From contig JBGFRN010000300.1 in the NCBI GenBank assembly GCA_041695105.1, positions 1 to 34,762 of the forward strand: a stretch of 34,762 bases of DNA, in the 5' to 3' direction. This document shows, piece by piece, positions 8,837-33,473 of this stretch. Position 1 is the stretch's first letter. Each line of letters opens with the position of its first letter. This DNA comes from Bacillota bacterium. Its GTDB lineage: Bacteria > Bacillota > Sulfobacillia > JAMDAP01 > JAJYMS01. Under the pieces are notes generated by a model. The model did no database searches. It was not told the origin of the DNA and saw only the letters and a program-made list of their open reading frames with translations. The position numbers and the translations under genes are program-made.

Positions 8837-8867
8837 ATATCTGGTCCCGTTAAAGGGGGAAAATCCG

Positions 8868-11254: not shown

Positions 11255-11284
11255 CGGTCTGGTCGAAAGAGAGGGCTATCTAAA

Positions 11285-11794
11285 ATGAGATTTACCGGAA
11301 GAATGCTACCGTTGCTTTTAATGGCGGCCGCCCTTTTGGCGTGGGCCCCGGCCGTGGCTTCGGCCCAGGTGATGAAGCCTCCGGTCGAGATCAACCGCCC
11401 GACCCGGGCGGTGGAGCAGCAGTTAATCTGCCAGTGCGGCTGCACTATGGTCGTAGACGTCTGTGACTGCGGCACGGCCGAGAACACCCGCAAGGACATC
11501 CTGGCCAAGATGAATTCGGGCATGTCGAATCAGCAGATTCTGGCCGCTTTTATGGCTCAGTACGGTGAAAAGGTCCTGGCCTATCCTGAGAAGAAGGGCT
11601 TTAACTGGGCGGCCTGGATTACCCCCTTCGCTGCCATTATCGCTGGTGCCACCCTTCTATATTTCATCTTGCGTAATTGGGTCCGATCCTCCCGGCGCTC
11701 CGAGGCCGCCGCCCCACAGGCGGGCCGCCTGAGCGAGGAGGAGGGCAAAATCTATGACAGCAAGCTTCAGGACGTGTTAAAGAAGCACTTCTAG
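11285..11794 (+). CDS. ccmH: cytochrome c biogenesis protein CcmH/NrfF family, atypical Cys pattern
   Basis: Signal peptide and a C-terminal TM. Family-like segment SNQQILAAFMAQYGEKVLAYPEKKGFNWAAWITPF. The redox motif region reads LICQCGCTMVVDVCDC instead of LRCxxC. Confidence 0.75.
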   Translation: MRFTGRMLPLLLMAAALLAWAPAVASAQVMKPPVEINRPTRAVEQQLICQCGCTMVVDVCDCGTAENTRKDILAKMNSGMSNQQILAAFMAQYGEKVLAYPEKKGFNWAAWITPFAAIIAGATLLYFILRNWVRSSRRSEAAAPQAGRLSEEEGKIYDSKLQDVLKKHF

Positions 11795-11803
11795 CGAGAG
11801 GTC

Positions 11804-12274
11804 GTGACCGTAGTGACCATAGCCGTTGTCATAATCGGCGTCTTTACCGGTTTGGCCGCCATCCTTCTGATTGGTCTCCCGCTGCTTCGGGCCCAAAGCG
11901 ATGAGATGCGGGAAGTCGAACTTGATGAGGTCGAGCTTGAAGAGATTGAGCGTGAGAAGGTTTTCGCCGCTCTCTCCGACATTGAGTACGACTATCGGAT
12001 GAATAAACTTTCTGAGGAGGACTACCAGGAACTAAAGGCCCGCCTGGCCAAGAAGGCGGTTGAGTTCATCAAAGAAGAAGAAGAGGCCGAGGCCACGACC
12101 GGGCCCAATCTTGAGGATGAGATCGAGGCCGAGGTGGCCGCCGAACTCGGCAAGCCCGATCCCGAACCTTCCGGCCCGGCCGCCAAAGCCGGCGGATACT
12201 GTCTTCACTGCGGGGCCAAACTGGCCAATAGCGATCAGCGTTTCTGTCAATCATGCGGGGGTAAGCTGGCATGA
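11804..12274 (+). CDS. N-terminally TM-anchored acidic coiled-coil protein with C-terminal zinc-ribbon
   Basis: GTG start after GAGAGG. TM (VVIIGVFTGLAAILLIGLPLL), E/D-rich helix, CLHCGAKLANSDQRFCQSCGGK. Stop overlaps the next start (ATGA at 12271). Confidence 0.55.
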   Translation: MTVVTIAVVIIGVFTGLAAILLIGLPLLRAQSDEMREVELDEVELEEIEREKVFAALSDIEYDYRMNKLSEEDYQELKARLAKKAVEFIKEEEEAEATTGPNLEDEIEAEVAAELGKPDPEPSGPAAKAGGYCLHCGAKLANSDQRFCQSCGGKLA

Positions 12275-13317
12275 TTAATAAATGGCTGGCCGGGCTGGTA
12301 GCCTTGTCGCTGGCCCTGTCTGTAGCCGGCAGCGCCCTGGCCGCCCAGGCGGCGACCGGGGTATCATCCGAATTTACCCACCTGTTGTTCGGAGTCAAAG
12401 ACGGGCAGCTCAAGGTCTTCCATCTGGTGAAGCTCAAAAACCAAGGGGCGTCTAGTTCCGGTCCAATCGAACTATCGCTTCCCAAGGGGTACCAAAACCC
12501 GGCCTTTTCGGGCGATGCCGGTGGGGCGATGGCCAAAGAGGTTCAGCTTGGATCGGAGGGCCTAAAGGATCCCCGGGGTCTGGAGCCGGGCGCGGCCAGG
12601 GACTATGTGCTGACCTACGACCTGCCGATGCCGCCGGATGGTCAGAGCCTGCGGGTCAACGTCAACTACCCGACCCAGATGATCCTGATTCTGGCTGACC
12701 AGGCCACGGTTCAGATGGTTCCCCTGCAAAACCGGGACTTCAGCTCTCAGGGTTCCGTCCAATACGGGCAAAAAACCTTTGAACAGTTTGCCCGGAACGA
12801 TGTTGCTCCCGGTACTACCCTGACCATGACCCTCGGACCGGCCACACCCGGGGGCGCACAGCCCGGCGGGGCCGGACAACCCGGCGGCGGGATGGCCCAC
12901 GAGCCTCCACCCGGAACCGTGACCAAAGGCACGATTGCCCTGCTCAACCAGGCCTTCCACGGCGGGGCTTCAAATATGATGATGTGGCAGCGCTTTACCG
13001 GCACCACCGGGCACGGTGGACTGGTCGGGAGCATCATCATTCTGGCCGGGCTGACCGTCCTGATCTTCGGCCTGGGCCGGACTTTCTATGTTCGCTGGCA
13101 GCTCAAGCAGGGGATCAACCCCGAGACCGGTGAACGGCCCGAGGAGACGTTCGAAAAGCTCCTCAAGGAAAAAAGCATTTATATTAAGAAAATCGCCGAC
13201 CTTGACCGTAAGGCCGAGGCCGGAGAGATCACCTCCGAAGAGCATCAGGAGCGCCGCTCGGCCTATAAGCGCCGTCTGGTCAAGGTTCTGGCCCGGCTGA
13301 AGGAGGTGGAGAATTGA
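12271..13317 (+). CDS. secreted beta-rich ectodomain protein with C-terminal TM anchor and SHOCT-like tail (module copy 2)
   Basis: Signal peptide (LVALSLALSVAGSALAAQA), ectodomain, Gly/Pro-rich linker, TM (LVGSIIILAGLTVLIFGLG), tail EAGEITSEEHQERRSAYKRRL. By eye it aligns with 7817..8836: LLFGVKDGQLKVFHLVKLKNQG vs LVFEVMDVQ..VLVILQGALINKG, and LEPGAARDYVLTYDLP vs IEPGKAYPYHMEWYYP. Its stop overlaps the ccmA start. Confidence 0.6.
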   Translation: MINKWLAGLVALSLALSVAGSALAAQAATGVSSEFTHLLFGVKDGQLKVFHLVKLKNQGASSSGPIELSLPKGYQNPAFSGDAGGAMAKEVQLGSEGLKDPRGLEPGAARDYVLTYDLPMPPDGQSLRVNVNYPTQMILILADQATVQMVPLQNRDFSSQGSVQYGQKTFEQFARNDVAPGTTLTMTLGPATPGGAQPGGAGQPGGGMAHEPPPGTVTKGTIALLNQAFHGGASNMMMWQRFTGTTGHGGLVGSIIILAGLTVLIFGLGRTFYVRWQLKQGINPETGERPEETFEKLLKEKSIYIKKIADLDRKAEAGEITSEEHQERRSAYKRRLVKVLARLKEVEN

Positions 13318-14015
13318 CTGTCCTTTTGGCCCGCGGCCTCGAAAAGAGAATCGGAACCAAATACGTCCTGTCGGGCTTCGATCTGGAGCTGCGGCAGGGG
13401 CGGTTCCTGACCATCTTCGGACCGAACGGGGCTGGCAAGTCCACCTTCCTCAGGGTGGCCGCCGGCCTCATTTCACCTTCGGCCGGCGAGCTGCAACTGA
13501 TGGGCCAAAGGCCAGCCGAGGGTGAGGGCGGCTATCGCAAGGGCTTGGGTTTTCTATCACACGGATCGTTTTTGTACGATAACCTGACGGCGGCAGAGAA
13601 CCTGGCTTTTTACGCCAAGATCTATGGAGTAAGAGATTCGGGGGCTATCATTCCCCGGCTGCTCAACGAGATCGGTCTAAGCCTTTTCGCCAACGATACC
13701 GTCCGGGGGTTTTCCCGGGGGATGATCCAGCGCTTGGCTATTGCCCGGGCGATTATCCACGACCCGGAGATCCTCTTTCTCGACGAGCCCTATACCGGCC
13801 TTGATCAGAGGGCGACCGCCATTTTGGACGGGGTACTCAGGCGTTTCAAACGCGCTGGAAAAACAGTGGTCATGGTCTCGCATAACTTTGCCGAGGGGCT
13901 GGCCCCGGCCGACGAGGTGGCGGTAATCGCCCGCGGGCGGGTGGTCGTTCACCGGGAAAAGGGGGAGCTCACCCCCGAGACCTGGAGCCGGGAATACCAC
14001 CGGGCGGTTGAGTAG
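13314..14015 (+). CDS. ccmA: heme exporter ABC ATPase CcmA
   Basis: Walker A GPNGAGKST, signature-like FSRGMIQRLAIARA, Walker B ILFLDEP. Followed by ccmB and ccmC. Confidence 0.85.
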   Translation: MTVLLARGLEKRIGTKYVLSGFDLELRQGRFLTIFGPNGAGKSTFLRVAAGLISPSAGELQLMGQRPAEGEGGYRKGLGFLSHGSFLYDNLTAAENLAFYAKIYGVRDSGAIIPRLLNEIGLSLFANDTVRGFSRGMIQRLAIARAIIHDPEILFLDEPYTGLDQRATAILDGVLRRFKRAGKTVVMVSHNFAEGLAPADEVAVIARGRVVVHREKGELTPETWSREYHRAVE

Positions 14016-14028
14016 CGGGGGTGTGTGA

Positions 14029-14721
14029 TTGGGCGACTACCTGCGCGTAGTGCTGGCCATAGCCGGAAAAGACCTGCGGGCCGAGAGACGGAGCAAGGAA
14101 ATGCTCTCGGCGATGCTGATTTTTTCCTTGCTGGTGGCGGTGATTTTTTCATTTGCCTTTAACATCGAATCGGGCATTTTGCGTGAAACCTTCCCAGGCG
14201 TGGTCTGGGTGGCCTTCTTCTTCGCCGGAACCCTTGGGCTGAACCGGTCTTTCGTTGGTGAGCGCATGAACGCCGCCATTCACGGCCTGATGCTGGCTCC
14301 GGTCGAGCGGAGCGCCATCTATTTCGGCAAGGTTCTGAGCAACCTGGCCATCATGTTTTTGACTCAGTTGGTTGGTTTGCCAATTTTTTTGATCTTCTTT
14401 GACGCCACGGTCGGCGGCTCATGGGCCTACCTGCTGCTCTCGCTGGTGGCATCCACCTTTGGATTCGTCGCCGTCGGCACCTTTTTGGCCGCTTTGTCGG
14501 CCAACACCAGGACCAGCGAGATCCTCCTTCCGATCATCCTCTTTCCGGTGGTGGTCCCAGTCGTCCTTGGCGCGGTTCAGACTACGGCCGGGGCGATGGC
14601 CGACCCGAACACCCTGGCCGACCCGACGGGGTACCTTAACTGGTTCAAAGTATTGCTGGTCTACGATCTTGTTTTTCTGATCGTTCCGTTCCTGCTCTTT
14701 GATTACGTCCTGGAGGTGTGA
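14029..14721 (+). CDS. ccmB: heme exporter membrane protein CcmB
   Basis: 230 aa, six hydrophobic segments. VVWVAFFFAGTLGLNRSFVGER resembles the conserved CcmB loop. Positioned between ccmA and ccmC. Confidence 0.85.
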   Translation: MGDYLRVVLAIAGKDLRAERRSKEMLSAMLIFSLLVAVIFSFAFNIESGILRETFPGVVWVAFFFAGTLGLNRSFVGERMNAAIHGLMLAPVERSAIYFGKVLSNLAIMFLTQLVGLPIFLIFFDATVGGSWAYLLLSLVASTFGFVAVGTFLAALSANTRTSEILLPIILFPVVVPVVLGAVQTTAGAMADPNTLADPTGYLNWFKVLLVYDLVFLIVPFLLFDYVLEV

Positions 14722-14722
14722 A

Positions 14723-15400
14723 ATGACCCCCGAACGCCACAGGGTATTGGGCTATACCACTTTCATCATGGTGACCCTGGGCCTGATCTGGGCCTTCCTG
14801 GTCTCGCCGACCGAAAAGGTGATGGGTGACGTCCAGCGGATCTTTTACTTTCACGTTGCCTCGGCCTGGAATGCCTTTCTGGCCTTCTTCGTCGTCTTCA
14901 TCGCCAGCATCCTTTACCTCAAAACGCGCGACAGGCGCTGGGATCTGTTGGGATACTGTTCGGCCGAGGTCGGGGTGCTCTTCACCACTATCGTCCTGCT
15001 CACCGGGCCGATCTGGGCCAAACCGATTTGGCTAACCTGGTGGACCTGGGATCCCCGGCTGACGACGACCCTGGTCCTTTGGTTCATCTACCTGGCTTAC
15101 CTGGTTATCCGCTCCACGGCCGAGGGCAGCGAGGCTCAGGCCCGCCTGGCGGCTATCTTCGGAATTATCGGCTTTTTGGATGTCCCCCTCGTCTTCGTTT
15201 CGGCCCGCTGGTGGCGCTCGATTCACCCGGTGCTGATCGACAAGGACAAGATGAACATGGAGCCGCCGATGGTGGTGGCCATGATCCTGGCCGTCTTGTC
15301 GTTCACCCTGCTCTATGCCTATTTAACCTCGGCCAGGATGCGCGTCGAGCGCTTGGCCCAGGAGGCCCAGGAACTTAAAGAAGCCCTCAGGTCGCGCTGA
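14723..15400 (+). CDS. ccmC: heme exporter/heme-handling protein CcmC
   Basis: WWD motif PIWLTWWTWDPRLTTTL. ATG 14723 lies 2 nt after the ccmB stop and follows GGAGG. The track start at 14699 overlaps ccmB. Confidence 0.9.
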   Translation: MTPERHRVLGYTTFIMVTLGLIWAFLVSPTEKVMGDVQRIFYFHVASAWNAFLAFFVVFIASILYLKTRDRRWDLLGYCSAEVGVLFTTIVLLTGPIWAKPIWLTWWTWDPRLTTTLVLWFIYLAYLVIRSTAEGSEAQARLAAIFGIIGFLDVPLVFVSARWWRSIHPVLIDKDKMNMEPPMVVAMILAVLSFTLLYAYLTSARMRVERLAQEAQELKEALRSR

Positions 15401-22266: not shown

Positions 22267-23901
22267 TTACCCGCTGACCGCCAAAACGTTGACTGTATAG
22301 TCCACCTTATACTTTCCAGCCTTAGGAGTGCTGACATCAAGCTGGTAAAGTCCGGGGCCGTTTAGGAGGGGGAAGTAAAGCTGTAATGGCTGCCCCGCCT
22401 TGGCCGGCCGGCCAAAAATCGCAATCTGGTGGTCTGCCTGCCTCAACTCCAGCCGGGTCAGCTCGTCGGACGGTGTGATCTCGATGGCCAAATAGGTTGA
22501 ATTCAACACCGCGTAAGCATCTCCGTTCACTCTCACCGTGACCGGAGCTTCCCGGACAGCCGTCAGCGGCTGGCGTGGCACCCGGGACCAGAGTTCCTCG
22601 AAAAGAACCTTCAGGGCTTCGGTCTGCCCTGGATACTCCCTGGGGTCGCCGTGAACCGTCCTTTGCTTGACCTTGGCCGTCCACCATTCGCCCAGGACGA
22701 TCCGAACATCCTCGGCCATCGAGTCAAGAACCGAGTCTTGTCGCAGGCCATAAACGTCCTCTGTTACGCTGAACGGCGCGATCCCTTTGATCGCCCCGTA
22801 CCGGTTCCAGAAGGCAGGATCGTCATTATAACCGGCCGAGTACCGCTGCTGCAGGTGGTGGCCGAACTCATGAGCCATAGTGGTCAGCAGCGCCTCGTAG
22901 ACGGCCACGTGATCGCCGTCCGGAGCGTGGCCGATCAGAGTTCGGTAAGCTTTGGTCGTTCCTGCGACGCGGCCGTTTTTATCCATGAACTCATTGGGAA
23001 TCAAATAAACCTCGAGGCCGCTAACCGCCTGGTCGGGAACCGCGATTTCGTCGAGAGCCCGGTGAATTGGGGGATGGTGCGGGTCATGCTGGAATTTCCG
23101 GGGTTCCAGGCGCAACCCGCCCTCGACCAGGAAGTCCGGGTACTTCAGTTCAGGTGTTGTATGCCCAGGTTTATAGCGGGTCAGCAAGCCGGCCCGGGCT
23201 GCCGCGGCCAGTTCGAGCGCTCTCAGCTTGAGGGCGGTCTCCTTCATGTAGACGGAATAGCCTCGGATCGGGTGCCTTCCTTCACGTCCCTTGATGTCCT
23301 TGATGGCCACCAGCAGGTGTCCCAACTCTTCACTAATCGATTGTATTTTTTCCGGGTTGGTTGACAGGCTGGCCCGAAGTTCCTCCAGGTGCCTGAGGTC
23401 GGTCTGGTGCCAGGCAAGGTAATCTTTCTCTGGGAGTCGCAGAGTAGATCCGAAGACAAGAGGGTATCTGGCATTTATTTCAACCGTCCGGGTTTCAGCG
23501 TTCCAATAAACCGAGGCATTCAGGCTCTCGGCCACAAACCTGACCGGTACCATGGTTCGTCCGGCGATAATCTGGGACGGGACGTCGAGTTTATGAGGAA
23601 CTCCGTTTATCCACGCAGTCCTGAGACCAACCGGCAGCTCGATGGTTGTTTTCCCCTGGGTGGCAACTACCGTGCGACTTTCGGATTCCCAGGACACTTC
23701 AGCCCCCAAGGCGCTGAAAATGACCCGGAGCGGAACTAAGGTCCGGCCTTGATCTATGATCGGTAAGACATCGAATACTAACTTCCGGCCGTTCACGGTA
23801 ACATTAATCAGCGGGTCAAAGGCTTGGACTGGCCGGGCAAGCAAGAGTGAGATCAATAGCGTCAAGCAGTACGTTCGGCGTAAGATTATCCTAAATCTCA
23901 T
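22267..23901 (-). CDS. secreted putative zinc metallopeptidase with N-terminal copper-amine-oxidase-N (stalk) domain
   Basis: Signal peptide (LLISLLLARPVQA). Duplicated VNG..L..D..P.I..GRT(L/M)VP(L/V)R motif typical of the Cu_amine_oxidN1 domain. HEXXH motif TMAHEFGHHLQQ. C-terminal beta-rich domain. Confidence 0.7.
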   Translation of the reverse strand: MRFRIILRRTYCLTLLISLLLARPVQAFDPLINVTVNGRKLVFDVLPIIDQGRTLVPLRVIFSALGAEVSWESESRTVVATQGKTTIELPVGLRTAWINGVPHKLDVPSQIIAGRTMVPVRFVAESLNASVYWNAETRTVEINARYPLVFGSTLRLPEKDYLAWHQTDLRHLEELRASLSTNPEKIQSISEELGHLLVAIKDIKGREGRHPIRGYSVYMKETALKLRALELAAAARAGLLTRYKPGHTTPELKYPDFLVEGGLRLEPRKFQHDPHHPPIHRALDEIAVPDQAVSGLEVYLIPNEFMDKNGRVAGTTKAYRTLIGHAPDGDHVAVYEALLTTMAHEFGHHLQQRYSAGYNDDPAFWNRYGAIKGIAPFSVTEDVYGLRQDSVLDSMAEDVRIVLGEWWTAKVKQRTVHGDPREYPGQTEALKVLFEELWSRVPRQPLTAVREAPVTVRVNGDAYAVLNSTYLAIEITPSDELTRLELRQADHQIAIFGRPAKAGQPLQLYFPLLNGPGLYQLDVSTPKAGKYKVDYTVNVLAVSG

Positions 23902-24010: not shown

Positions 24011-27000
24011 GTGGCAGGCAGTTCAAAAAAATCTTTCGCTTGGTTACTGATTCTAGTTTTAGTTTTTTTCGGATTCTTTGGGCTAAAGGTTCTGGCCGAC
24101 CAGACCGGCGACAAGTTCGGGAGCAGCGCCACTGGTACTGTTTCAGGCGGCGCCGCCAGCGATGCCCTGACTTTGAACAACGCCGGACCGAGCCTGGACT
24201 GGGACAAGAACGATTGGGTAAAGGTCCAGGGTTTCAGCAGCAGCGGTGTTTCGGGGACCATCAACTTTGTCAGGGTCAAAGTTACCGTGAGAACCGACTC
24301 CACCGACCCGCGGGGCGACTGGGTCTTGCGTTATACCTATAACAACACGGATAACTTTACCACGGCCGGACAGGGATATACCGCCTTTGATTGGCACCGG
24401 ACCCTGTCGACTAGTTTTGTTACCGAAACGGTTGATCTAACCACCAGGGACGGCAGCGCCAGGTGGACGACGACCGATATTGACAATCTTCGCTTTCGTA
24501 TGGATACCAGACGCTCGGCCTCGGGAGCTAGCGGTCAATTTATTATACCCGACGCCATTTACATCCTGGTTGACTACACTCCCCCCGACACCACGCCGCC
24601 GACCGACCCGTCCAACCTCCGGTCAACGGGGAAGGGCGGGAGCTACATCGATCTGGCCTGGGACGCCTCCAGCGACTCCGGGAGCGGGGTGGCCGGCTAT
24701 CAGGTTTACCGGAACGATGTAGCCGTGGCTTGGGTGGCCGCACCAACCACGACCTACCGCGACAGCGGGCTGGCCGAGTTTACGACATACAGCTACAAGG
24801 TTTCGGCCAAGGACAATGCCGGCAACTGGTCGACCGGATACGCCGGGCCGATCTCGGAACAAACCCTGGACACGACCGCCCCGAGCGCCGTCAGTTCGGT
24901 GACGATCACGGCCTATAGCGCCTATCGTTTGAGGGAACTCGACATCACCTGGCTTCCGTCGTCGGACCCGAGTCCGGGCAGCGGGGTTTCGCATTACCAA
25001 ATTTTTGACGCTGGTACCAACGTTTTATTGCAGACCTACACTCATAGCGGCTCGGTCAGCAGCTTTACCTATCGGACGAGCGGATTGGGCTACTTGCCCA
25101 ACCAGACGCGCACCTATTATTTCAAGACGTTTGACAACAGCGGCAACAGCTCGACCAGCGGCAACTTTTCCGGAACGACCGACCCGGACACCCTGGCTCC
25201 AACCCCGGTCAACACCCTGACGGCGGTGGCTGAAAGCAGCAGCAGGATCCGGCTTGACTGGGACCCGGTGACCGACGACTGGGGCGTCTCACACTATATG
25301 GTCTACCGCAACACCGTCTACCTGCGCCGGATCGACTCAACTGGCGCCACCCATTATCAGATTTTCGACACCGGTCTGAACGCGGACACATCTTACTCTT
25401 ATTATGTCCAGCCGGTAGACATTTACAGCAACGTTCAGACTTCGGGCAATAACACCGCCAGCGCCACGACCTTCCCCGTCGACACTACGCCGCCGAGCAA
25501 GCCAGGCAACCTGACGGCCAGCGCGGTCGGCACCTCGGAGATTGATCTGAGCTGGACAGCCTCGACCGATAACGTCGGGGTGGTCGGCTATTACATCTAC
25601 CGGAGCGTCAGCGGGGGAACCTATTCTTACCGGGCGACCGCCGCCGGAACCAGCTATACCGATACCGGATTAACCCATAACACGCTATATGGCTATTACG
25701 TTAGAGCCTATGACGAGGCCGGGAATATTTCCGATCCGAGCGACACGGCTTCGGCCACAACCAAGACGGACACCACCCCGCCGTCGGTCGTGTCGACCAG
25801 CCCTTCCGCCGGCGCCAATAACGTGGGGCGGGCCGTTTACCCCAGCGCTAATTTCAGCGAGGCGCTGGATGCCAACACGGTCAACTCGACCAATGTTGTT
25901 CTTAAAGATGTCTACGACAACACGGTCACCAGCGGCGTCTACCTGATCAATAACTCGACGGTGGAGATCAGACCTAACGCCAGGCTGGCGGCCAGCACCC
26001 TTCACACCGTTTATCTCAAAACCGGGATCAAGGATCTGGCCGGTTTATCGATGTCCTCAGAGTACTCCTGGAGTTTCACCACTGGCACGTCTGATTACTT
26101 TGTGCCCCACGGCAACTACGGGCAGACCCCGAACGCCTGCATCAATTGCCACTCGTCTCACTATGGTCAGAACGCCCGGATGATCCGGGCAGCCAACGTC
26201 TCGTCGGTCTGTTTTACCTGCCATAACGGGACCGGGGCCAAGGCCTTGAACGATATCGACAACCAGTTCAAGACCGGCACCAACACGGTCTTTCATCCGG
26301 TCAAGAACACTCAGGCCTCGGCCGGGGGAGCTTACACCGGGTTGATCGAGTGTGTCACGTGTCATAACCCGCACGGCGACGTAAATACGGTTACAGGTCA
26401 GGTTTACCCCAGGCTTCTAAAGCAAAAAAACGCGTCGGGCAACTACGTCTTCCAGGGTAATGCCTTCTGCTTGACCTGTCACGGCCCGACTGACCGGCAA
26501 TGGAGCGCGACTTATTACTCAAACACTGCTGGCGATCACAGTTCGGCCAGCACCAAGCATTACGATTTGAACGAGGCGGATCTGGTTCCGCCGTCGGGAA
26601 CACAGATCACCTGCGTCATGTGTCATAACAAGCACGCCAGCCCATACCGCCGGCTCGGCCTGGCTCTTGAGGAGAACCTTTGCTTTAACTGCCATAATAA
26701 GGTGGCCAATTCAATCGACGGCAACCGCAATATTCAGGATGAGTTTAACCGGACCGGTTCCAAGCACGACATCGGCGCCAATGGGTCCGGAGGCATCCGG
26801 GTCGAGTGTTACAACTGCCACAATACTCATTTGGTTACCAACGTCAGGGTTTCGGCCAAGCAGTCGGTCTCAGACGTGACCAATCCCGACAATACCAAAC
26901 AGTACTTCACGGATACCGTCAGCGGAAAGATCACCGGCTTCTGCCTCAAGTGTCACGATGGGTCGCCGCCGGTGGCGGTGGTTAATTCAACCACTTTGGT

Positions 27001-28249
27001 GCCTTATACGGTGACTTTCCCCAATGTCTCTTTTACTAACAATCTCGGGGGTTGGGACAAGTCGTTGTTTACCGACTCTGGTCATCATGTCAACTCTACA
27101 GTCTACGTCGACTGTGGCAGTTGTCACGAGCCGCACGGGTCAAACTACGACCGGCTCCGTTTAAGGGATGAGGATACCGCCACCACCAACGGGATCTGCC
27201 TCACCTGCCACGCCGGGCAATACGCCAATAGTGTCGCGCCCAACGTCAAGACTGACCTGACCAAGGCCTACCGGCACCCGACACTTTACATCGCGGGTGT
27301 CCACACCGACACCGAAAACCACAACTTCAACACGGCAACGAACCGGCACGCCGAGTGCTATGACTGCCACGATATGCACGCCGCCAAGCAGGGTGGGGCC
27401 GTCGCCGCTTCAGGGAACACCCCTCCCAAGGCTTCAAACATCCTCAGGAACGTTTACGGGATCAGCGTGACGACCGACCCGAACGTTCGGACCGTTGCCA
27501 GTATGGGCTACAAGCCCGCCTCGATGGCATATAATTCTTCGGGGTATTCAGTGACTTCGGTGGTCTATATGTTCAACCTGTGCTACAAGTGTCACTCTAG
27601 CTACAGCTTCGGCAACACCCCGCCAACGACCCCGAACCCCCCATATACCGACATCGCCGCCGAATTCAACCCTAATAACGAGTCGTACCATCCGATCGAG
27701 GCCAAGGGGAAAGCCTGGTCAAGCATCCCTAATACTAGCTTTACCGGGACCGACAGCTTCGGCACCGCCATTACCAGGGATACGATCCTGTTCTGCACCG
27801 ACTGCCATGGTAGCAATAATTCGGGTGTGAAGGGCCCGCACGGTTCGGACAATCGCAGTATCTTGAAGAAACCGTGGACGACCACCACCGGCGGGAATAG
27901 CACCGACTTCTGCTTCAATTGCCACAATCCCGATGTTTACGGTCCCAACGCCACCGCTGGTTATACTTCGACCGGTTTCAACGACGCCGACACCCGGAGG
28001 GGCAACCTGCACAAGTACCACGGCGCGGACAAGGGATACCGGAATTGTCAGTACTGCCATGTCAGGATCGTTCATGGCTGGACCCGGCCGCACCTGATCG
28101 GGCACCAGGACGACCCATTTCCCTACATTGACAAGGATGGCAACGGTAACGCCACGGTTAACCGGATTACTTACTTCCCGCCTTATGTCGCTTCTGGCGG
28201 GTATAGGAGAGGCGGACCTTGGTGCTCAGTCTCTCACGGGCAGCACTAG
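24011..28249 (+). CDS. giant secreted FN3-repeat / Ig-like / 15-heme c-type cytochrome
   Basis: GTG start after GGGGAAGGACGAGG. Signal/anchor WLLILVLVFFGFFGLKVLA, then a Cys-free N-terminal beta domain of about 160 aa. Four FN3 repeats follow (e.g. IDLAWDASSDSGSGVAGYQVYRN, IDLSWTASTDNVGVVGYYIYRS) joined by TTPPS-type linkers. One SbsA/Big_5-like Ig domain (SPSAGANNVG...VVLKD). Then 15 CXXCH motifs between 26138 and 28060. Confidence 0.85.
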   Translation: MAGSSKKSFAWLLILVLVFFGFFGLKVLADQTGDKFGSSATGTVSGGAASDALTLNNAGPSLDWDKNDWVKVQGFSSSGVSGTINFVRVKVTVRTDSTDPRGDWVLRYTYNNTDNFTTAGQGYTAFDWHRTLSTSFVTETVDLTTRDGSARWTTTDIDNLRFRMDTRRSASGASGQFIIPDAIYILVDYTPPDTTPPTDPSNLRSTGKGGSYIDLAWDASSDSGSGVAGYQVYRNDVAVAWVAAPTTTYRDSGLAEFTTYSYKVSAKDNAGNWSTGYAGPISEQTLDTTAPSAVSSVTITAYSAYRLRELDITWLPSSDPSPGSGVSHYQIFDAGTNVLLQTYTHSGSVSSFTYRTSGLGYLPNQTRTYYFKTFDNSGNSSTSGNFSGTTDPDTLAPTPVNTLTAVAESSSRIRLDWDPVTDDWGVSHYMVYRNTVYLRRIDSTGATHYQIFDTGLNADTSYSYYVQPVDIYSNVQTSGNNTASATTFPVDTTPPSKPGNLTASAVGTSEIDLSWTASTDNVGVVGYYIYRSVSGGTYSYRATAAGTSYTDTGLTHNTLYGYYVRAYDEAGNISDPSDTASATTKTDTTPPSVVSTSPSAGANNVGRAVYPSANFSEALDANTVNSTNVVLKDVYDNTVTSGVYLINNSTVEIRPNARLAASTLHTVYLKTGIKDLAGLSMSSEYSWSFTTGTSDYFVPHGNYGQTPNACINCHSSHYGQNARMIRAANVSSVCFTCHNGTGAKALNDIDNQFKTGTNTVFHPVKNTQASAGGAYTGLIECVTCHNPHGDVNTVTGQVYPRLLKQKNASGNYVFQGNAFCLTCHGPTDRQWSATYYSNTAGDHSSASTKHYDLNEADLVPPSGTQITCVMCHNKHASPYRRLGLALEENLCFNCHNKVANSIDGNRNIQDEFNRTGSKHDIGANGSGGIRVECYNCHNTHLVTNVRVSAKQSVSDVTNPDNTKQYFTDTVSGKITGFCLKCHDGSPPVAVVNSTTLVPYTVTFPNVSFTNNLGGWDKSLFTDSGHHVNSTVYVDCGSCHEPHGSNYDRLRLRDEDTATTNGICLTCHAGQYANSVAPNVKTDLTKAYRHPTLYIAGVHTDTENHNFNTATNRHAECYDCHDMHAAKQGGAVAASGNTPPKASNILRNVYGISVTTDPNVRTVASMGYKPASMAYNSSGYSVTSVVYMFNLCYKCHSSYSFGNTPPTTPNPPYTDIAAEFNPNNESYHPIEAKGKAWSSIPNTSFTGTDSFGTAITRDTILFCTDCHGSNNSGVKGPHGSDNRSILKKPWTTTTGGNSTDFCFNCHNPDVYGPNATAGYTSTGFNDADTRRGNLHKYHGADKGYRNCQYCHVRIVHGWTRPHLIGHQDDPFPYIDKDGNGNATVNRITYFPPYVASGGYRRGGPWCSVSHGQH

Positions 28250-28334
28250 AGGCCCTCGACGGTAAACACCTGGGCCAACAACTGGGAAGGAATAAACCTT
28301 TCGACTGCAGAAACAAACCTCACACTGCTGCAAA

Positions 28335-28363
28335 GGGCCGGAGGTCACCGGCCCTTAGTTTTT
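28335..28363 (+). terminator. intrinsic terminator after the multiheme cytochrome gene
   Basis: GGGCCGG-AGGTCA-CCGGCCC followed by TTAGTTTTT. Confidence 0.6.
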
Positions 28364-28417: not shown

Positions 28418-29716
28418 GTGATCGGGGTTACCTTTCTGGCCCTTTTAGCCTCAGGAGGAACCCGGGCTTCGTTCGGGGTCTTCATTAAGCCGATTGAGAC
28501 CGAATTCGGATGGGATCGGGCCACCGTCTCGCTGGCCGCCTCGATCAGCGCCATGATGTACGGGGTTGGGCAGCCCCTGGTCGGCTACCTGATTGACCGC
28601 TGGGGGGCGCGCCGGGTGCTGGTGCTGAGCGTGCTCGGATTGGGTTTGGGCGCCGGCTTGACCGCCCTGACCCCAGGGGTAATGTATCTTTACGTTGTCT
28701 ATGGCCTGCTGACCACATTAGCCGCCAGCGGCCCGGCCGTAGCTATGGCCTCCTCGGTTGTCGCCCGCTGGTTCCAGACCAACCGCGGCCTGGCGATGGG
28801 CATCTGCGCCTCGGGCATCTCGGCCGGTCAGTTGGTGATCATCCCGCTGGCCATGCATCTGAACATCATGTTCGGATGGCGCTACAGCTTTGCCGTGCTG
28901 GGCGGGCTGATGCTAGTCCTGATCCTGCCGCTGGTTTTTCTTTATATGAAGAATTCCCCAGGGGATCTTGGCTTAAAGCCTTTCGGTGCCGAGGAGGAGG
29001 GGCGGCGCACCGCTGGGGACCGGTCAGGGATGGCCAGTTCGAGCCCGGCTGCCTTTCCCCCTGCTCTCGCCCCACCCGCCGCGACGGTCCCAGCGGCTGG
29101 TGTTCACCACTCTCTGGCCTCGGCCCTGAGGAACCGCGACTACTGGCTGGTGGTCTTCACCCAGTTCGTCTGCGGCTTTACCAGCCTGGGCAGCGTCACT
29201 ACCCACCTACCCGCCCATTCGATCGAGCACGGCTTTTCTCCAATGGTTGTGGCTGGTGCTATGGGGCTGATGGGCGGCATGAACTTCATCGGAACCATCC
29301 TCTCCGGCTGGATGACCGACCGGGTCGGGCGGCGGCAACTTCTGTGCGGCATTTACGGCTTTCGGGGCCTGGCCGTGGTCTACCTGATGTTCGTCCATGA
29401 CCCCATGGCTCTGAGCCTTTTTGCTATTGTTTTCGGCCTGACCTACATTGCCGCCACCCCTCCGACCGCCTCAATCCTGGTCGACCACTTCGGGCCGGGG
29501 TCGGCCGCCAGCCTGCTCTCCTGGGCCTTCGTCGGGCACCAAATCGGGGCGGCCATTGGAGCTTACTTCGGGGGTCTGCTCCACGACCTGACCGGGGGCT
29601 ACACTTACTCGTTCATCGCCTCAGCCATCCTGGCCCTCGCCGCCGCGGCCGCCAGCCTGCTGATCAGGCCCAGCCCGGCCCCGCACCGCATCTCGAACCC
29701 TTACCCCCATGTTTAA
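28418..29716 (+). CDS. MFS transporter (12-TM, oxalate/formate-antiporter-like layout)
   Basis: 432 aa. N- and C-terminal six-helix halves separated by a Pro/Ala-rich loop, with a GYLIDRWGARRV motif in loop 2-3. The start is uncertain: conserved-looking in-frame residues (KRWHYAWIV) lie upstream of GTG 28418 without a canonical start codon. Confidence 0.75.
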   Translation: MIGVTFLALLASGGTRASFGVFIKPIETEFGWDRATVSLAASISAMMYGVGQPLVGYLIDRWGARRVLVLSVLGLGLGAGLTALTPGVMYLYVVYGLLTTLAASGPAVAMASSVVARWFQTNRGLAMGICASGISAGQLVIIPLAMHLNIMFGWRYSFAVLGGLMLVLILPLVFLYMKNSPGDLGLKPFGAEEEGRRTAGDRSGMASSSPAAFPPALAPPAATVPAAGVHHSLASALRNRDYWLVVFTQFVCGFTSLGSVTTHLPAHSIEHGFSPMVVAGAMGLMGGMNFIGTILSGWMTDRVGRRQLLCGIYGFRGLAVVYLMFVHDPMALSLFAIVFGLTYIAATPPTASILVDHFGPGSAASLLSWAFVGHQIGAAIGAYFGGLLHDLTGGYTYSFIASAILALAAAAASLLIRPSPAPHRISNPYPHV

Positions 29717-29787
29717 GCGATAATCCATGCTCAAACCGGGCACCCTAAACTGGCTACCCTGATCGGGAAACTAGCGGGGGTGATCCG

Positions 29788-31179
29788 GTGGTTAGTCTAA
29801 GAAATTACGCCATGTGGATCCTGCTGGCGGCCGTTACCCTGGCTGCGGCAGGATACGCTTTTTATCGGGGCGTCTTACCCGGGCCGAGGCTTCGCGCCGA
29901 GGGCAAAACCGGCAGGATGGGCTACGTCTATGTCGTCAACCAGACCTCCAATGATGTCCACGCCATTGACATTGCCACCCTGCGGGTGGTTGAGCGGGTC
30001 AAGGTCGGGCGGACCAGTCATAACCTCTGGGTTAGCCCGGGTGGACGCTGGCTGGCGACGACTAACTATGGCGATGGGACGGTCTCCCTGATCAATCGGG
30101 CGACCCTGCGCCAGGTGGCAACCATTCAGGCCGGAAAGTGGCCGACCCACGTCGTCTTCAGCCGCGACGACAGATACGCCTATGTCCCGGACGCCGTCGG
30201 GGTACTCAGGGTGCTCGACCTGCAGGCCAGGGCGCCGGTAGGCGAGCTGAGAATCAAGTACGGCCCGCACGGCATTTTTAATTCTGAGGCTAACCCTGGG
30301 CCCCAGGCGGCCGGGTCGGCCGGTGGGATGCTGGCCATTGCTTCGACCGAGAGCAACCTGATCACCCTGGTCGACGTCTCCAGCCCTACAGCCCCACGGC
30401 TGGTGGCTGAGGTTCCGATCAGCGGGAAAGTCCCGATTGGAAGCGCCTTGAGTCCGGACGGCCGCTGGGCCGCCAGCGGCAACGCCGGGAGCAGCACCGT
30501 CTCGGTGGTCGATGTGATCGGCCGCCGGGAGATCGCCCACGTTCCGGTCGGTCATACTCCAATTCAAGTAGCCTTTTCTCCCGACGGGCGGCATCTGGCT
30601 TCGGCCAATTCCAAGGATTCGAGCGTCACCCTGATCGATACCGCCACCTGGGCCCCGGTGGCCGAGATCAAGATCCAGATCGGAAACTTCGGCCCCAAGG
30701 AAGTCGGGGCTCACGGCCTGGCCTGGACGCGGGACGGTGGTTCCTTATTCGTCACCAACACCGGTTCCAACTCGGCCAGCCTAATCGACGTCCCCCGGCG
30801 GGCAGTGGTCGCCCACGTGACGGTTGGCAACCAGCCTCAGGGGGTGGCCCTTTGGGAACCGGAGGTTGTCGCCGCCAGGCCGGTCCGTAACTTCATTGTA
30901 GTAGCCCGCCAGTGGGACTTTGTTGACGAGGGGGGCGCGGCCCTTGAGCCACAGGTCGACCTTGGCGACCTGATTGTGATGCGCCTGCGCAGTCCCGACG
31001 TCCCGCACGGCGTAGCGTTAAACGATTTTAAGGTTATTCAGACGGTCAATCCGGGGAAAGAGGAGACGGTGGCCTTCGTCGCCACCGCCCCGGGAGCCCT
31101 GAAATATTATTGCTACCTCTACTGTGGGCCAGGACACTTTCCGATGGAGCGGACGCTGACCGTTCGTGGCCCGAGCTGA
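29788..31179 (+). CDS. membrane-anchored YVTN/lactonase-type beta-propeller fused to a CuA-type cupredoxin domain
   Basis: N-terminal TM (MWILLAAVTLAAAGYAF). About seven ~43-aa repeats with SPGG/SRDD/SPDG/TRDG signatures. The C-terminal domain has DVPHGVAL (His 31006-31008) and CYLYCGPGHFPM (31111-31146), i.e. H-x34-C-x3-C-x3-H-x2-M, the CuA ligand spacing of COX subunit II and NosZ. Confidence 0.75.
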   Translation: MVSLRNYAMWILLAAVTLAAAGYAFYRGVLPGPRLRAEGKTGRMGYVYVVNQTSNDVHAIDIATLRVVERVKVGRTSHNLWVSPGGRWLATTNYGDGTVSLINRATLRQVATIQAGKWPTHVVFSRDDRYAYVPDAVGVLRVLDLQARAPVGELRIKYGPHGIFNSEANPGPQAAGSAGGMLAIASTESNLITLVDVSSPTAPRLVAEVPISGKVPIGSALSPDGRWAASGNAGSSTVSVVDVIGRREIAHVPVGHTPIQVAFSPDGRHLASANSKDSSVTLIDTATWAPVAEIKIQIGNFGPKEVGAHGLAWTRDGGSLFVTNTGSNSASLIDVPRRAVVAHVTVGNQPQGVALWEPEVVAARPVRNFIVVARQWDFVDEGGAALEPQVDLGDLIVMRLRSPDVPHGVALNDFKVIQTVNPGKEETVAFVATAPGALKYYCYLYCGPGHFPMERTLTVRGPS

Positions 31180-31238
31180 AGCCGGCCAAAAGCCGGCCAA
31201 AAAGGTTCTGGGCTCTCCCTGGCGAATCTTGTCTCATT

Positions 31239-33473
31239 ATGCATATTTGTCCGGGGAGGGTTTTGGGTTTGGCCCAACAGGGGTACATCTTTGCCCTTGA
31301 CATCGGTACCCGCAAGGTTATGGGGATCCTGGCCCGTCAGGACGGCAAGGGCTGGCAAATTGTCGCCGCCGAGCGGATGGAGCACCCCACCCGCTCGATG
31401 TACGACGGGCAGATCCATTATGTGGCCGAAGTGGCCGAGGTCGTAAGCCAGGTCAAGGGCAAGATCGAATCCAGGGCCGGAGTCAAGCTGACCCATGCCT
31501 CGGTGGCGGCGGCCGGCCGCGCCCTGCGTACCTTCAGGGGACGCGCCCTGCGCGAAAACGATGCCATGGTGGAAATGACGGCCTCCGACGTCATGGCTCT
31601 GGAACTTCAGGCGGTACAGGACGCTCAGCACCGGCTGCTGGAGGAGATGAAAAAACAGGGCGAAGAAGCCATCGAGGCCGAGTACCATTACGTCGGCCAT
31701 ACTGTTTTGACCTCCGAGTTAGACGGCAAGCCGATCGCCTACCTGGCCGGGCACCTGGCCCGTACCGCTTACATCGAGGTCATCGCCACTTTTCTCCCGC
31801 GCGAGGTGGTCGACTCGCTGCTCTCCGTGCTCGAACGCTCCGATCTTGAGGTGCACAGCCTCACCCTCGAGCCGATCGCGGCTATCAGCGTTGTTGTCCC
31901 ACCAACCATGCGTCACCTTAACCTGGCACTGGTCGATATCGGGGCCGGAACCTCGGACATTGCCATGACCAGTAAGGGAGCCGTCGTCGCCTATGACATG
32001 GTCCCGGTGGCCGGCGATGAGATTACCGAGCAGATCTCACACAAATACTTACTTGACTTTTCGGTGGCCGAGGCCGTCAAGCGGTCCCTGGCCAAGTCGG
32101 AGACGGTCAAAATCACCGACATCCTCGGCCACAAGCAGGCGCTGCCCCGGACCGAGGTGATCGACTGGCTGGCCCCTCACGTCGAGGAATTCGCCCACCG
32201 CCTGGCCAACCGCATCCTCGACCTGAACGGCGGCCCCCCGGTCGCCGTGGTGCTGGTCGGCGGCGGCAGCCAAACCCCCTTGCTTCCAGGCTTCTTGGCC
32301 AAGGCCCTCAGCCTGCCAGGTAACCGGGTGGCCGTCCGCGGCCGTGAGGCGATCTCTGGTTTCACCGGGGGCGGCCCGATCCTTCAAGGGCCCGACTCAG
32401 TCACCGGCATTGGCATCGCCGCCACCGCGTCGGATTCAGCCGCCCTGGGCTTTGTCTACGTTACGGTCGGAAGCAAGCGCGTCCGCCTCTTTCATCCCTC
32501 CCGCCAGCTCACTGCCGGCGACGCCCTGCTGACCGCCGGCGTGTCCCTTGAGGAACTCCGGGGCCAGGTCGGTAAGGGGCTCACGGTGACGGTTAACGGG
32601 CAGCTCCGGCTGATCCGGGGCACCATCGGCCGCCCCGCCCAGATCATGGTCAACGGCGAACCGGCCCAGCTCGACACAGGTATCCGCCCGCGCGACAAGA
32701 TAGCGGTCGTCCCCGGGGTCAGAGGGGAACCGGGGAGGGCCACCCTGGGCGAGATCCTCGAAGGCATCGAGCCCTTCGAGGTAACAGTCAACGGGGATGT
32801 CCGCCGGGTCGAGCCGAAGGTTTTCCTCAACCGCCGGGCGGTCAGCGATTTTTCGGTGCAGCTCGCCGATAACGACTCGGTTGAGGTCAGGGCCTCGGCC
32901 AGCCTGGCCGAATGGTTGCCTGAATGGGGGTACACCGGTGGTTCCGCTGGGGATTCGGCTGGGGATTCCGCTGGGGATTCCGCCCACCCATCGTTCATCT
33001 TTTCCCTGAACGGCCTCAAGGCAAGGATTCATGCCCCGCCTTACGAATACCTGGTCAACGGCAAACCGGTTGAGTTGACCTGCCGGATCGGACCGGGTGA
33101 CAGCGTCGAAATCGCGCCGAAAAAACTCAGCCTGGCCGACGCCCTGGCTTCGGTCCAACCCGCGGCCTTCCTTCCGGCGGCTGGGTCGGTGCGGGTTAAG
33201 TGCAACGATCGGATCGTAGTCTTTGAGACCAGGCCCCGGATCACTGTCAACGAGCGGGACGCCGATCTAAACTGCCTGCTTGATCCCTGGGACGAGGTGG
33301 CCGTTTCCTCGGAGGGGTCAGACCCAACCGTGGCCGACTTGCTCCTCAAGATTGGCTTTTCGCCCTCACCGCCGGCGGGGAAACGCTCCCTGGTCATCGA
33401 GGTCAATGGCCGCCCGGCCGCTTTTACCGATGTCCTGGCCGACGGCGATCGAATTCGGATCGATTGGGCATAG
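31239..33473 (+). CDS. FtsA-like actin-fold ATPase with five to six C-terminal beta-grasp (ThiS/MoaD-like) repeats
   Basis: Phosphate-1 FALDIGTRKV, phosphate-2 ALVDIGAGTSDI, adenosine motif VVLVGGGSQTPLLPG. Then repeats of the type VNGxP..L...I..GD.IEI (e.g. IMVNGEPAQLDTGIRPRDKIAVVPG, YLVNGKPVELTCRIGPGDSVEIAP, IEVNGRPAAFTDVLADGDRIRIDW). The start is ATG 31239 or TTG 31269 (after GGGGAGGG). The track start at 31110 overlaps the upstream gene. Confidence 0.6.
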   Translation: MHICPGRVLGLAQQGYIFALDIGTRKVMGILARQDGKGWQIVAAERMEHPTRSMYDGQIHYVAEVAEVVSQVKGKIESRAGVKLTHASVAAAGRALRTFRGRALRENDAMVEMTASDVMALELQAVQDAQHRLLEEMKKQGEEAIEAEYHYVGHTVLTSELDGKPIAYLAGHLARTAYIEVIATFLPREVVDSLLSVLERSDLEVHSLTLEPIAAISVVVPPTMRHLNLALVDIGAGTSDIAMTSKGAVVAYDMVPVAGDEITEQISHKYLLDFSVAEAVKRSLAKSETVKITDILGHKQALPRTEVIDWLAPHVEEFAHRLANRILDLNGGPPVAVVLVGGGSQTPLLPGFLAKALSLPGNRVAVRGREAISGFTGGGPILQGPDSVTGIGIAATASDSAALGFVYVTVGSKRVRLFHPSRQLTAGDALLTAGVSLEELRGQVGKGLTVTVNGQLRLIRGTIGRPAQIMVNGEPAQLDTGIRPRDKIAVVPGVRGEPGRATLGEILEGIEPFEVTVNGDVRRVEPKVFLNRRAVSDFSVQLADNDSVEVRASASLAEWLPEWGYTGGSAGDSAGDSAGDSAHPSFIFSLNGLKARIHAPPYEYLVNGKPVELTCRIGPGDSVEIAPKKLSLADALASVQPAAFLPAAGSVRVKCNDRIVVFETRPRITVNERDADLNCLLDPWDEVAVSSEGSDPTVADLLLKIGFSPSPPAGKRSLVIEVNGRPAAFTDVLADGDRIRIDWA
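32943..32984 (+). repeat. in-frame 12-nt tandem repeat (TCCGCTGGGGAT x3.5) encoding (SAGD)3
   Basis: Read directly. Lies in a linker between beta-grasp-like repeats of the FtsA-like protein (GGSAGDSAGDSAGDSAH). Confidence 0.85.

Follow-up and report, generated by a model that had tools for sequence, protein, structure and literature searches.

To our knowledge, before 2025 the pairing of a seven-bladed beta-propeller with a binuclear CuA centre was known only from nitrous oxide reductase (NosZ). The description of L-NosZ then showed that divergent propeller-CuA versions had been overlooked. These lactonase-type propeller-CuA N2O reductases constitute clade III (He et al. 2025, Nature 646:152, cited in PMC13477213) and, according to PMC13477213, are about 480 residues long and reduce N2O without adjacent nosDFYL or canonical nos accessory genes. 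Here we analysed a 34,762-nucleotide contig of a Bacillota bacterium (JBGFRN010000300.1; this whole 34.8-kb stretch is referred to as the window), in which the open reading frame (ORF) at 29788–31179 encodes a 463-residue protein with the same two-domain plan. An earlier reading of the DNA letters, the original prediction, had described this protein as a miniature NosZ-like architecture and had proposed that a His-lined propeller hub could hold a metal site fed by CuA. Our analyses suggest that the protein unites two modules: a propeller such as occurs alone in copper-resistance islands, and a CuA module such as small orphan cupredoxins contain. Taken broadly, our favoured but tentative reading, which we put a little short of an even chance, is that it is an extracytoplasmic, membrane-tethered copper redox protein with two centres, CuA and a smaller copper site at the hub. 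In its design it would be either convergent with NosZ or a very remote relative that re-uses the same plan, and it falls in no described N2O reductase clade.

The C-terminal cupredoxin holds a complete ligand set for a binuclear CuA centre, the predicted one-electron relay. The sole Cys residues of the protein, C442 and C446, both lie in the loop CYLYCGPGHFPM, and H407 is situated 34 residues upstream. In a phmmer comparison of the last 107 residues with the PDB sequences, the CuA domain of Thermus thermophilus ba3 (2cua, 1ehk; E 2e-8) aligns over 72 residues with no gap, SPDVPHG pairing with SPDVIHG and YCYLYCGPGHFPM with IICNQYCGLGHQNM. The alignment places H407, C442, C446, H450 and M453 on CuA ligand positions, and all five side-chain ligands are matched. 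The spacing H-x34-C-x3-C-x3-H-x2-M, in which the original prediction had recognised CuA, is borne out by this alignment, and the motif is not a chance occurrence, because 148 of the 149 best CuA-domain relatives carry C-x3-C-x3-H-x2-M. Every ligand is also invariant in the three members of the family, namely this protein and its homologues P0002 and P0003, a conservation on which the prediction had made its case depend. The AlphaFold2 model, built on a 48-sequence alignment (mean predicted local distance difference test score, pLDDT, 86), shows a beta-sandwich at residues 372–460, with a pLDDT of 60–83.

The origin of this domain was explored by an exhaustive HMMER search with a CuA-domain profile against 1.84 billion representatives. 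One cluster, the protein itself, was found at E < 1e-30, followed by 2234 weaker relatives. The best 149 of these 2234 score 60–104 bits and are mostly proteins of 130–210 residues with one N-terminal hydrophobic segment; their His usually lies 34 residues upstream of the first Cys, the motif reads ...YC..CG.GH..M, and none of the 149 has a propeller. The relatives match Pfam Cupredoxin_1 and COX2, and neither of the two that were examined in context adjoins COX1, subunit I of the haem-copper oxidases. These orphan CuA cupredoxins, kin of the ba3-type CoxII (2cua/1ehk), share the full signature of the target. They are small, tandem or fused to SLH, fn3 or DUF7282 domains, whereas the target is fused to a propeller. 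When the domain was used as a single query against the PDB, NosZ CuA scored 22–27 bits versus 37 for Thermus CuA, and the curated models gave 33 bits for clade II NosZ, 33 for CoxB, 32 for clade I NosZ and 22 for L-NosZ. Because the target reaches 14 bits on Pfam COX2 (PF00116), under the gathering score of 22, while its close relatives pass at 31–71, the domain is a divergent member of the COX2 type. The module looks recruited from the orphan cupredoxins and not inherited from a NosZ ancestor, since its closest relatives are these orphans and NosZ CuA scores lower. The orphan family as a whole (2234 representatives; P0121–P0269, e.g. P0121, P0122, P0123, P0131, P0179, P0132, P0146 and P0233; loci L027 and L029) often comes from DPANN-like archaea, and double or triple tandem CuA domains occur in it. 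At L029, a member has a GSDH-type propeller dehydrogenase and another cupredoxin in its vicinity.

The N-terminal part of the protein is a YVTN propeller. The model shows seven blades of four strands each between residues 46 and 356, with propeller pLDDT blocks mostly above 93, followed by the cupredoxin, and the last propeller strand (350–356) appears to close blade 1. The NCBIfam YVTN repeat model TIGR02276 matches five stretches with 139 bits, past its threshold of 27.85 bits, and in the PDB the YVTN S-layer propeller 1l0q is the best relative in sequence as well as in fold. The original prediction was therefore correct in its count of about seven YVTN/lactonase-type blades, as it was in that of nine propeller His (58, 78, 121, 161, 251, 256, 269, 309 and 343). 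It had assigned five of these to the hub. Four of them, H78, H121, H161 and H309, proved to be invariant in an alignment of 15 sequences (A4) that unites the target family with stand-alone propellers at 27–34% identity, but H256 (GHTPIQ) lies off the strand-start position and is Leu in P0003. The invariant columns of A4 include H78-N79, H121-V122, P160-H161-G162, P258/Q260, H309-G310 and P350/G352. At the starts of the innermost strands they give the pattern PHN / PxHV / PHG / PxQ / (G)AHG / P(N/Q)G, which has no established name, is called His4 here and is present in the target. Position 351 is His in 19 of the 48 sequences of the wider YVTN alignment.

The family is very rare, with three sequences, none from a cultured organism, among about 15 billion proteins. 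A word-indexed search of 5.8 billion clusters returned only two full-length relatives, P0002 (87% identity) and P0003 (73%), and the next matches were propeller-only proteins at about 30% identity. Two peptide patterns found no family member in the GTDB species-representative genomes, and a degenerate DNA pattern for CGPGHFPM gave nine matches in GTDB genomes, all out of context and close to the chance expectation. The closest relatives of the propeller are stand-alone His4 YVTN propellers (27–34% identity), which share H78, H121, H161, H309, Q260 and N/Q351. The blade pattern H / xH / H / V / I / H occurs in nine of the twelve propeller-only relatives examined; P0004, P0040 and P0028 deviate slightly from it, at non-His positions. 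Unlike the target, these proteins lack a cupredoxin and begin with a cleavable signal peptide; their blade 2 also contains a His/Met-rich insertion, which is missing from the target.

The genomic context of the stand-alone propellers is informative with respect to the hub. Four of the five homologues examined lie in copper-resistance islands, beside genes for Cu ATPase, multicopper oxidase and CopB (Table 1), whereas the target has no such neighbours in the window. Separate small cupredoxins are encoded in the islands of P0061 and P0095. P0024, which has the same hub pattern, carries PF03713 (DUF305) in the precomputed Pfam list, and DUF305 is the copper-binding domain of CopM (PMC4335983). 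This context supports a metal-binding hub, with copper as the most likely metal. Since the same His set is found in propellers without an electron-transfer domain, it did not evolve to be fed by CuA, and belongs to a copper-associated propeller family. The kinship weakens the earlier inference that CuA feeds the hub in the manner of CuZ, of which the placement of the His at CuZ-type positions still stands (see below), and strengthens the more general inference of a metal-binding hub.

Several observations concern the propeller families as such. The secreted stand-alone family (330–380 residues, with four invariant hub His, Gln/Asn and His/Met-rich loops; L018–L022 and L025–L026 in alignments A4/A6) is apparently unstudied. 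Our literature search on copper-island YVTN propellers found no paper, and our search for a solved structure of this family found none; P0061 matches PDB 8q9x / 8yu5 (489 residues, ‘Twin-arginine translocation signal domain-containing protein’) weakly, with 26.6 bits between residues 200–287 and 378–468. In another group, P0019, P0073 and P0113 (L016:6001-7278), the YVTN propeller has five hub His (H H H R H H) and is followed by a fused type-1 cupredoxin at the C-terminus. The latter is amicyanin-like with a single Cys, the family is larger, with 36 members in one 90% cluster, and P0073 adjoins a divergently transcribed ECF sigma / anti-sigma pair. In P0031, P0032, P0052, P0071, P0106 and P0087, YVTN propellers are combined with di-haem peroxidase/MauG and cytochrome c, or with multihaem domains, and the hub His are largely absent.

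Comparison with NosZ supports the architecture that the original prediction had described. Among the matches listed by Foldseek against the PDB, all other 49 after 1l0q (ranks 2–50) are NosZ, with E about 1e-19 and a TM-score of 0.58. At the residue level we used ten canonical NosZ from a metagenome scan (alignment A5), whose invariant His are the seven CuZ ligands (DxHH, xHG, PHG, GPLH, VGH and EPH) and the CuA set. In hhalign, the target and its propeller relatives matched these ten NosZ at 97% (E 6.6e-11, 278 columns), with target residues 138–460 on NosZ blades 4–7 plus CuA and the CuA ligands aligned; the latter match COX2 cupredoxins as well. Here H161 pairs with the His of PHG and H309 with that of EPH, while Gly218 takes the place of the GPLH His and the invariant Gln260 that of the VGH His. 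Two of the four aligned CuZ His positions are conserved, and the hub His number four in total versus seven. The stand-alone propellers alone matched NosZ at 92% (E 7.5e-7) in a register shifted by two blades, where PHN (H78) is matched to PHG and PAH (H121, deeper in the strand by one residue) to GPLH. In both registers the hub His of the family occupy the within-blade position that supplies CuZ ligands. Canonical NosZ of clades I and II (e.g. P. stutzeri 3sbp) likewise consists of a seven-bladed propeller and a C-terminal CuA domain; compared with it, the target is about 120–180 residues shorter, has four and not seven hub His, lacks the HH pair, and carries a transmembrane (TM) anchor instead of a twin-arginine translocation (Tat) or Sec signal.

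Given the NosZ-like fold, the remote homology and the hub His at CuZ-ligand positions, we considered that the protein might be a miniature but true N2O reductase, in which CuA feeds a CuZ-like copper-sulfide cluster at the hub and N2O is reduced to N2. L-NosZ provides a precedent, as it has the same plan and size (about 480 residues versus 463), shares the alignment of the CuA loop (model positions 418–478) and, according to PMC13477213, reduces N2O with no canonical nos accessory genes adjoining. The window is similar in this respect, since our search for nosD, F, Y, L, R/X and B in its 34.8 kb found none, as the earlier note had said of nosDFYL. Further comparison makes this explanation very improbable. 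The L-NosZ criteria, taken second-hand from a preprint (bioRxiv 10.64898/2026.07.10.737647), are a length of 400–900 residues, the CuA motif CX2FCX3HXEM, DXHH (alternatively GXHH), PHG, GPLH and EPH. The target is within the length range, but its CuA loop CYLYCGPGHFPM departs from the motif at two positions, where Tyr stands in place of Phe and Pro in place of Glu; the ligands themselves are present. Among the four CuZ motifs only PHG is found (GPHG 159–162; a second PHG, 406–408, contains the CuA His). The other three are missing: the whole protein contains no HH dipeptide, and hence no DXHH/GXHH, as had been noted before, and neither GPLH nor EPH. On the NCBIfam L-NosZ model NF052460 (480 residues, cut-off 700 bits) the target scores 75.2 bits, of which the propeller part gives 57, out of register, and the CuA part 22. 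This score carries no L-NosZ-specific signal, because cupredoxin-free YVTN propellers (about 106–120 bits; P0004 119, P0008 106) and canonical clade I NosZ (195 bits) score higher. With a genuine but partial L-NosZ of metagenomic origin (L129:1-744) the score is 277 bits, obtained over the final 43% of the model; this fragment shares with the target the CuA loop alone (28 bits), and its last blades resemble canonical NosZ (LNKFS..., EPH), unlike YVTN repeats. TIGR04244 and TIGR04246 give 41 and 32 bits versus a cut-off of 625, confined to the last ~57 residues, the CuA loop. These scores, the missing CuZ motifs, and the absence of nos genes from the window rule out membership in any NosZ clade. 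The atypical N2O reductase with a CuZ-like site that the original prediction had envisaged is therefore not upheld, with four hub His, no HH pair, and Gly218 and Gln260 at CuZ His positions; to its question whether lactonase-type propeller-CuA N2O reductases had already been characterised, the answer is yes, as L-NosZ, but the target is not one of them. As for the metagenome scan with the NosZ CuA motif, it returned mostly canonical NosZ and this one partial L-NosZ, which carries CTHFCGPLHLEM; 34 residues upstream of its first Cys, the canonical spacing, no His is present, and the sequence there reads NPDVTMG.

Two other explanations dispense with N2O. In the first of these, which we consider unlikely, the protein serves copper homeostasis: the hub would bind periplasmic Cu(I)/Cu(II) as cargo, a role that we also propose for the stand-alone propellers of the islands, and CuA would oxidise Cu(I) and pass the electron to cytochromes, with the reverse reaction, Cu(II) reduction, also possible. 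The island context of four of the five stand-alone homologues and the CopM-type domain of P0024 are consistent with such a role, as are the His/Met-rich loops of the homologues, which appear to lie on the tunnel-mouth face (B-C loop), the separate cupredoxins of the same islands, and the multihaem cytochrome adjoining the target as a possible electron sink. However, the target family has lost the His/Met-rich capture loop, the window encodes no Cu ATPase, CsoR/CueR, CopZ or multicopper oxidase, P0028 lies outside any copper island, and the copper role of the propeller family is a prediction from sequence and context. If the cuprous-oxidase form of this explanation were true, O2-independent Cu(I) oxidation would be useful to an anaerobe. 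Another possibility, also rather unlikely, would be that CuA is a tethered one-electron carrier in the cell envelope and the propeller a non-catalytic scaffold or interaction domain, whose hub His are structural or hold a non-redox ion. The CuA module is indeed found alone, in tandem or fused to many surface domains (SLH, fn3, DUF7282), YVTN propellers are common domains of surface proteins (1l0q), and of the 665 aligned repeats of the wider YVTN set, 163 have His at the hub position, where it is the commonest residue. A mere scaffold, however, would hardly keep four His and a Gln invariant at 27–34% identity in a fixed asymmetric blade pattern, or have its hub His coincide with NosZ ligand positions, and a feature of purely structural significance would not readily account for the occurrence of the homologues in copper islands.

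We therefore return to the two-centre copper redox protein that we tentatively prefer. In this protein H78, H121, H161, H309, Gln260 and Gln351 would surround the entrance to the central tunnel and together form a mono- or binuclear copper site smaller than CuZ. CuA would exchange single electrons between this site and c-type cytochromes, for which the nearby 15-haem surface cytochrome is the obvious candidate, and the transfer may run across a head-to-tail dimer, by analogy with NosZ. The likeliest substrates would be two: Cu(I), oxidised at the hub with the electron going to CuA, or a small oxidant, for which a fixed copper at the hub would be the site of reduction. In NirK, a cupredoxin centre passes single electrons to a His-ligated catalytic copper. 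NirK serves as a working analogy only, as it has a different fold (a cupredoxin trimer) and a type-1 centre in place of CuA, and the target matches it at chance level. Because the islands encode small cupredoxins beside the propeller, and because P0019, P0073 and P0113 are fusions with a type-1 cupredoxin, cupredoxin-to-hub electron transfer may well be what these proteins are for. A NosZ-like propeller whose copper centre differs from CuZ has a precedent in thiocyanate dehydrogenase (TcDH; Tikhonova et al. 2020, cited in PMC9456337), in which three Cu ions lie in the tunnel of a seven-bladed propeller and electrons go to cytochrome c. Unlike the target, TcDH has no fused CuA, and the likeness is one of architecture, with no sequence relationship established. 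A bolder proposal, which we regard as quite unlikely, is that the hub is a new copper site of four His and Gln/Asn, redox-wired by the fused cupredoxin, and that the target and its island relatives oxidise toxic Cu(I) without O2, the electron passing via CuA to multihaem cytochromes. If true, the NosZ scaffold would here have given rise to an anaerobic equivalent of the multicopper cuprous oxidases.

Several points weigh against the two-centre reading. The location of the hub residues, and with it any convergence of the four His on one point, is predicted from the strand assignment and the NosZ alignment. The two hhalign registers lie two blades apart, an ambiguity to be expected with repeat proteins, and equivalence to particular CuZ ligands is accordingly not fixed. 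The Foldseek TM-score, with a root-mean-square deviation of about 15 Å, suggests that the propeller alone superposes on NosZ, and the confidence of the modelled CuA domain is moderate. Since the hub His also occur in propellers that lack a redox domain, their role could be structural, or they could bind another metal or carry copper as cargo. The three family members are closely related, and their conservation says little by itself. The charges flanking the TM helix, with R27, R34, R36, K40 and R43 on its C-terminal side, show no clear preference for an outside location, so that the topology is formally ambiguous; an extracytoplasmic location is argued from the cleavable Sec signal peptides that the stand-alone homologues carry at the same place. 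Co-transcription with the cytochrome gene is unlikely because of the strong terminator-like hairpin that follows the latter (Table 1). Finally, no Sco, PCuAC or other copper-handling or CuA-assembly genes, and no copper-resistance cluster, were found in the window.

Table 1. Features of the propeller-CuA gene and its surroundings in the window, and loci of the stand-alone propeller homologues.
Feature	Position	Strand	Evidence or remark
Whole gene: TM-anchored YVTN propeller and CuA cupredoxin, 463 residues	29788..31179	+	Stop codon 31177-31179
Shine-Dalgarno-like GGGGGTGA	29776..29783	+	4 nt 5' of the GTG start; read in the sequence
N-terminal hydrophobic helix, residues 4-26	29797..29865	+	AlphaFold2/DSSP; signal anchor or uncleaved Sec signal
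Seven-bladed YVTN beta-propeller, residues 44-356, 28 strands	29917..30855	+	DSSP; pLDDT mostly >93
His78, blade 2, innermost-strand start (TSHN)	30019..30021	+	Invariant in A4; on NosZ PHG His (propeller-only hhalign)
His121, blade 3 (WPTH), one residue deeper in the strand	30148..30150	+	Invariant in A4; on NosZ GPLH His (propeller-only hhalign)
His161, blade 4 (GPHG)	30268..30270	+	Invariant in A4; on NosZ PHG His (whole-family hhalign)
Gln260, blade 6 (TPIQ)	30565..30567	+	Invariant in A4; on NosZ ‘VGH’ CuZ His (whole-family hhalign)
His309, blade 7 (GAHG)	30712..30714	+	Invariant in A4; on NosZ EPH His (whole-family hhalign)
Gln351, strand closing blade 1 (QPQG)	30838..30840	+	Asn in stand-alone relatives
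C-terminal CuA-type cupredoxin, about residues 371-463	30898..31176	+	Preceded by low-confidence linker 357-370
His407, N-terminal CuA ligand (SPDVPHG)	31006..31008	+	Aligns with SPDVIHG His of Thermus CuA and with NosZ CuA His
CuA loop CYLYCGPGHFPM (C442, C446, H450, M453)	31111..31146	+	Sequence; Thermus and NosZ alignments
Secreted cytochrome, 1412 residues, 15 CXXCH, fn3 and Big_5	24011..28249	+	Neighbour; possible redox partner
Terminator-like hairpin, 9 pairs (7 GC), T-run	28333..28356	+	After the cytochrome gene
MFS transporter (oxalate/formate and lactate-transporter-like)	28418..29716	+	72 nt upstream of the target gene
P0061 locus			CusRS, Cu P-type ATPase, propeller, multicopper oxidase, CopB, cupredoxin
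P0067 locus			CusRS, ATPase, DUF411, propeller, multicopper oxidase, CopB
P0095 locus			ATPase, DUF2933, DUF305, propeller, CusF, cupredoxin, multicopper oxidase, second ATPase
P0040 locus (Actinoplanes)			HMA ATPase, DUF2933, propeller, two-component system
P0028 locus			Outside any copper-resistance cluster

The gene itself agrees with the earlier description of its ORF and of a product with a TM anchor and no Tat signal. It starts with GTG, the N-terminus MVSL(R/K)xY...WILLAA is kept in P0002 and P0003, and no twin-arginine signal was found there. The gene is under purifying selection, because its ratio of nonsynonymous to synonymous substitution rates (dN/dS) against the gene of the 87%-identical P0002 is 0.09; it is low in both domains, with 0.06 for CuA.

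A candidate electron partner is encoded by the cytochrome gene upstream. The original prediction had named this 15-haem protein, two genes away, as a possible donor; the 15 CXXCH motifs are confirmed by count, but the link is one of adjacency, by which the cytochrome is a plausible partner, and terminators lie between. In the lineage of P0003 (L001–L004) the cytochrome orthologue is directly upstream of the target homologue, and the MFS gene that separates the two in the window and in the P0002 contig is absent. A GC hairpin with T7 follows the cytochrome orthologue in L001 as well, and an operon of cytochrome and target was rejected on account of the terminators after the cytochrome gene in both lineages. 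A functional linkage to the MFS gene was also rejected: P0004, the stand-alone propeller closest to the target, has an MFS gene beside it too, but the two transporters bear no relation to each other (24 bits), and we attribute this to coincidence. In the cytochrome, the CXXCH motifs sit in the C-terminal half, preceded by fn3 and Big_5, and MtrC/MtrF-like matches suggest extracellular electron transfer. The orthologue at L001:2-4687 is truncated by the contig end and has 14 CXXCH; all four contigs of the P0003 lineage break inside this gene. Divergently upstream of the cytochrome gene, 22267–23901 on the minus strand encodes a 544-residue protein with a copper amine oxidase N-terminal (stalk-like) domain, which is a cell-envelope domain and does not point to copper chemistry.

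The remaining window carries, in order upstream, TatC, CcdA, thioredoxin and FeoB, a System I set, a sigma-54 two-component pair and tricarboxylic acid cycle genes, before the 15-haem cytochrome. The System I cytochrome c maturation cluster (8772–15400) is complete, with CcmE, F, H, ABC ATPase, CcmB and CcmC, and is interspersed with zinc-ribbon proteins and two family-less ORFs (7817–8836 and 12271–13317). The window resembles the genome of a deep-branching, spore-forming member of the Bacillota: its IDH has relatives at about 75% identity among Symbiobacteriia and Heliobacteria, a loose indication only, and genes for sporulation adjoin the P0003 homologue. Downstream, 31110–33473 encodes an FtsA/PilM/MreB-like actin-fold ATPase with several ThiS/MoaD-like beta-grasp domains and an GDSAGDSAGDSA repeat, which is kept immediately downstream of the target homologue in the P0003 loci. 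Its probable start is the ATG at 31239, since the mechanical ORF from TTG 31110 would overlap the 3' end of the target gene by 70 nt.

To conclude, our work describes what would be a further lineage of the NosZ design, with a different and smaller hub ligand set, assembled from two modules that circulate separately, and it illustrates what can change in the NosZ scaffold. For metagenome surveys it is a warning that a lactonase-type propeller-CuA protein need not be an N2O reductase. It also points to an unstudied family of His-ringed propellers in copper-resistance islands, whose hub residues match CuZ-ligand positions. If the island propellers bind copper, they would supply a component that has been missing from the picture of how bacteria handle copper, and the fusions to cupredoxins, with CuA in the present protein and type 1 in P0019 and P0073, would then suggest redox chemistry at the hub site.

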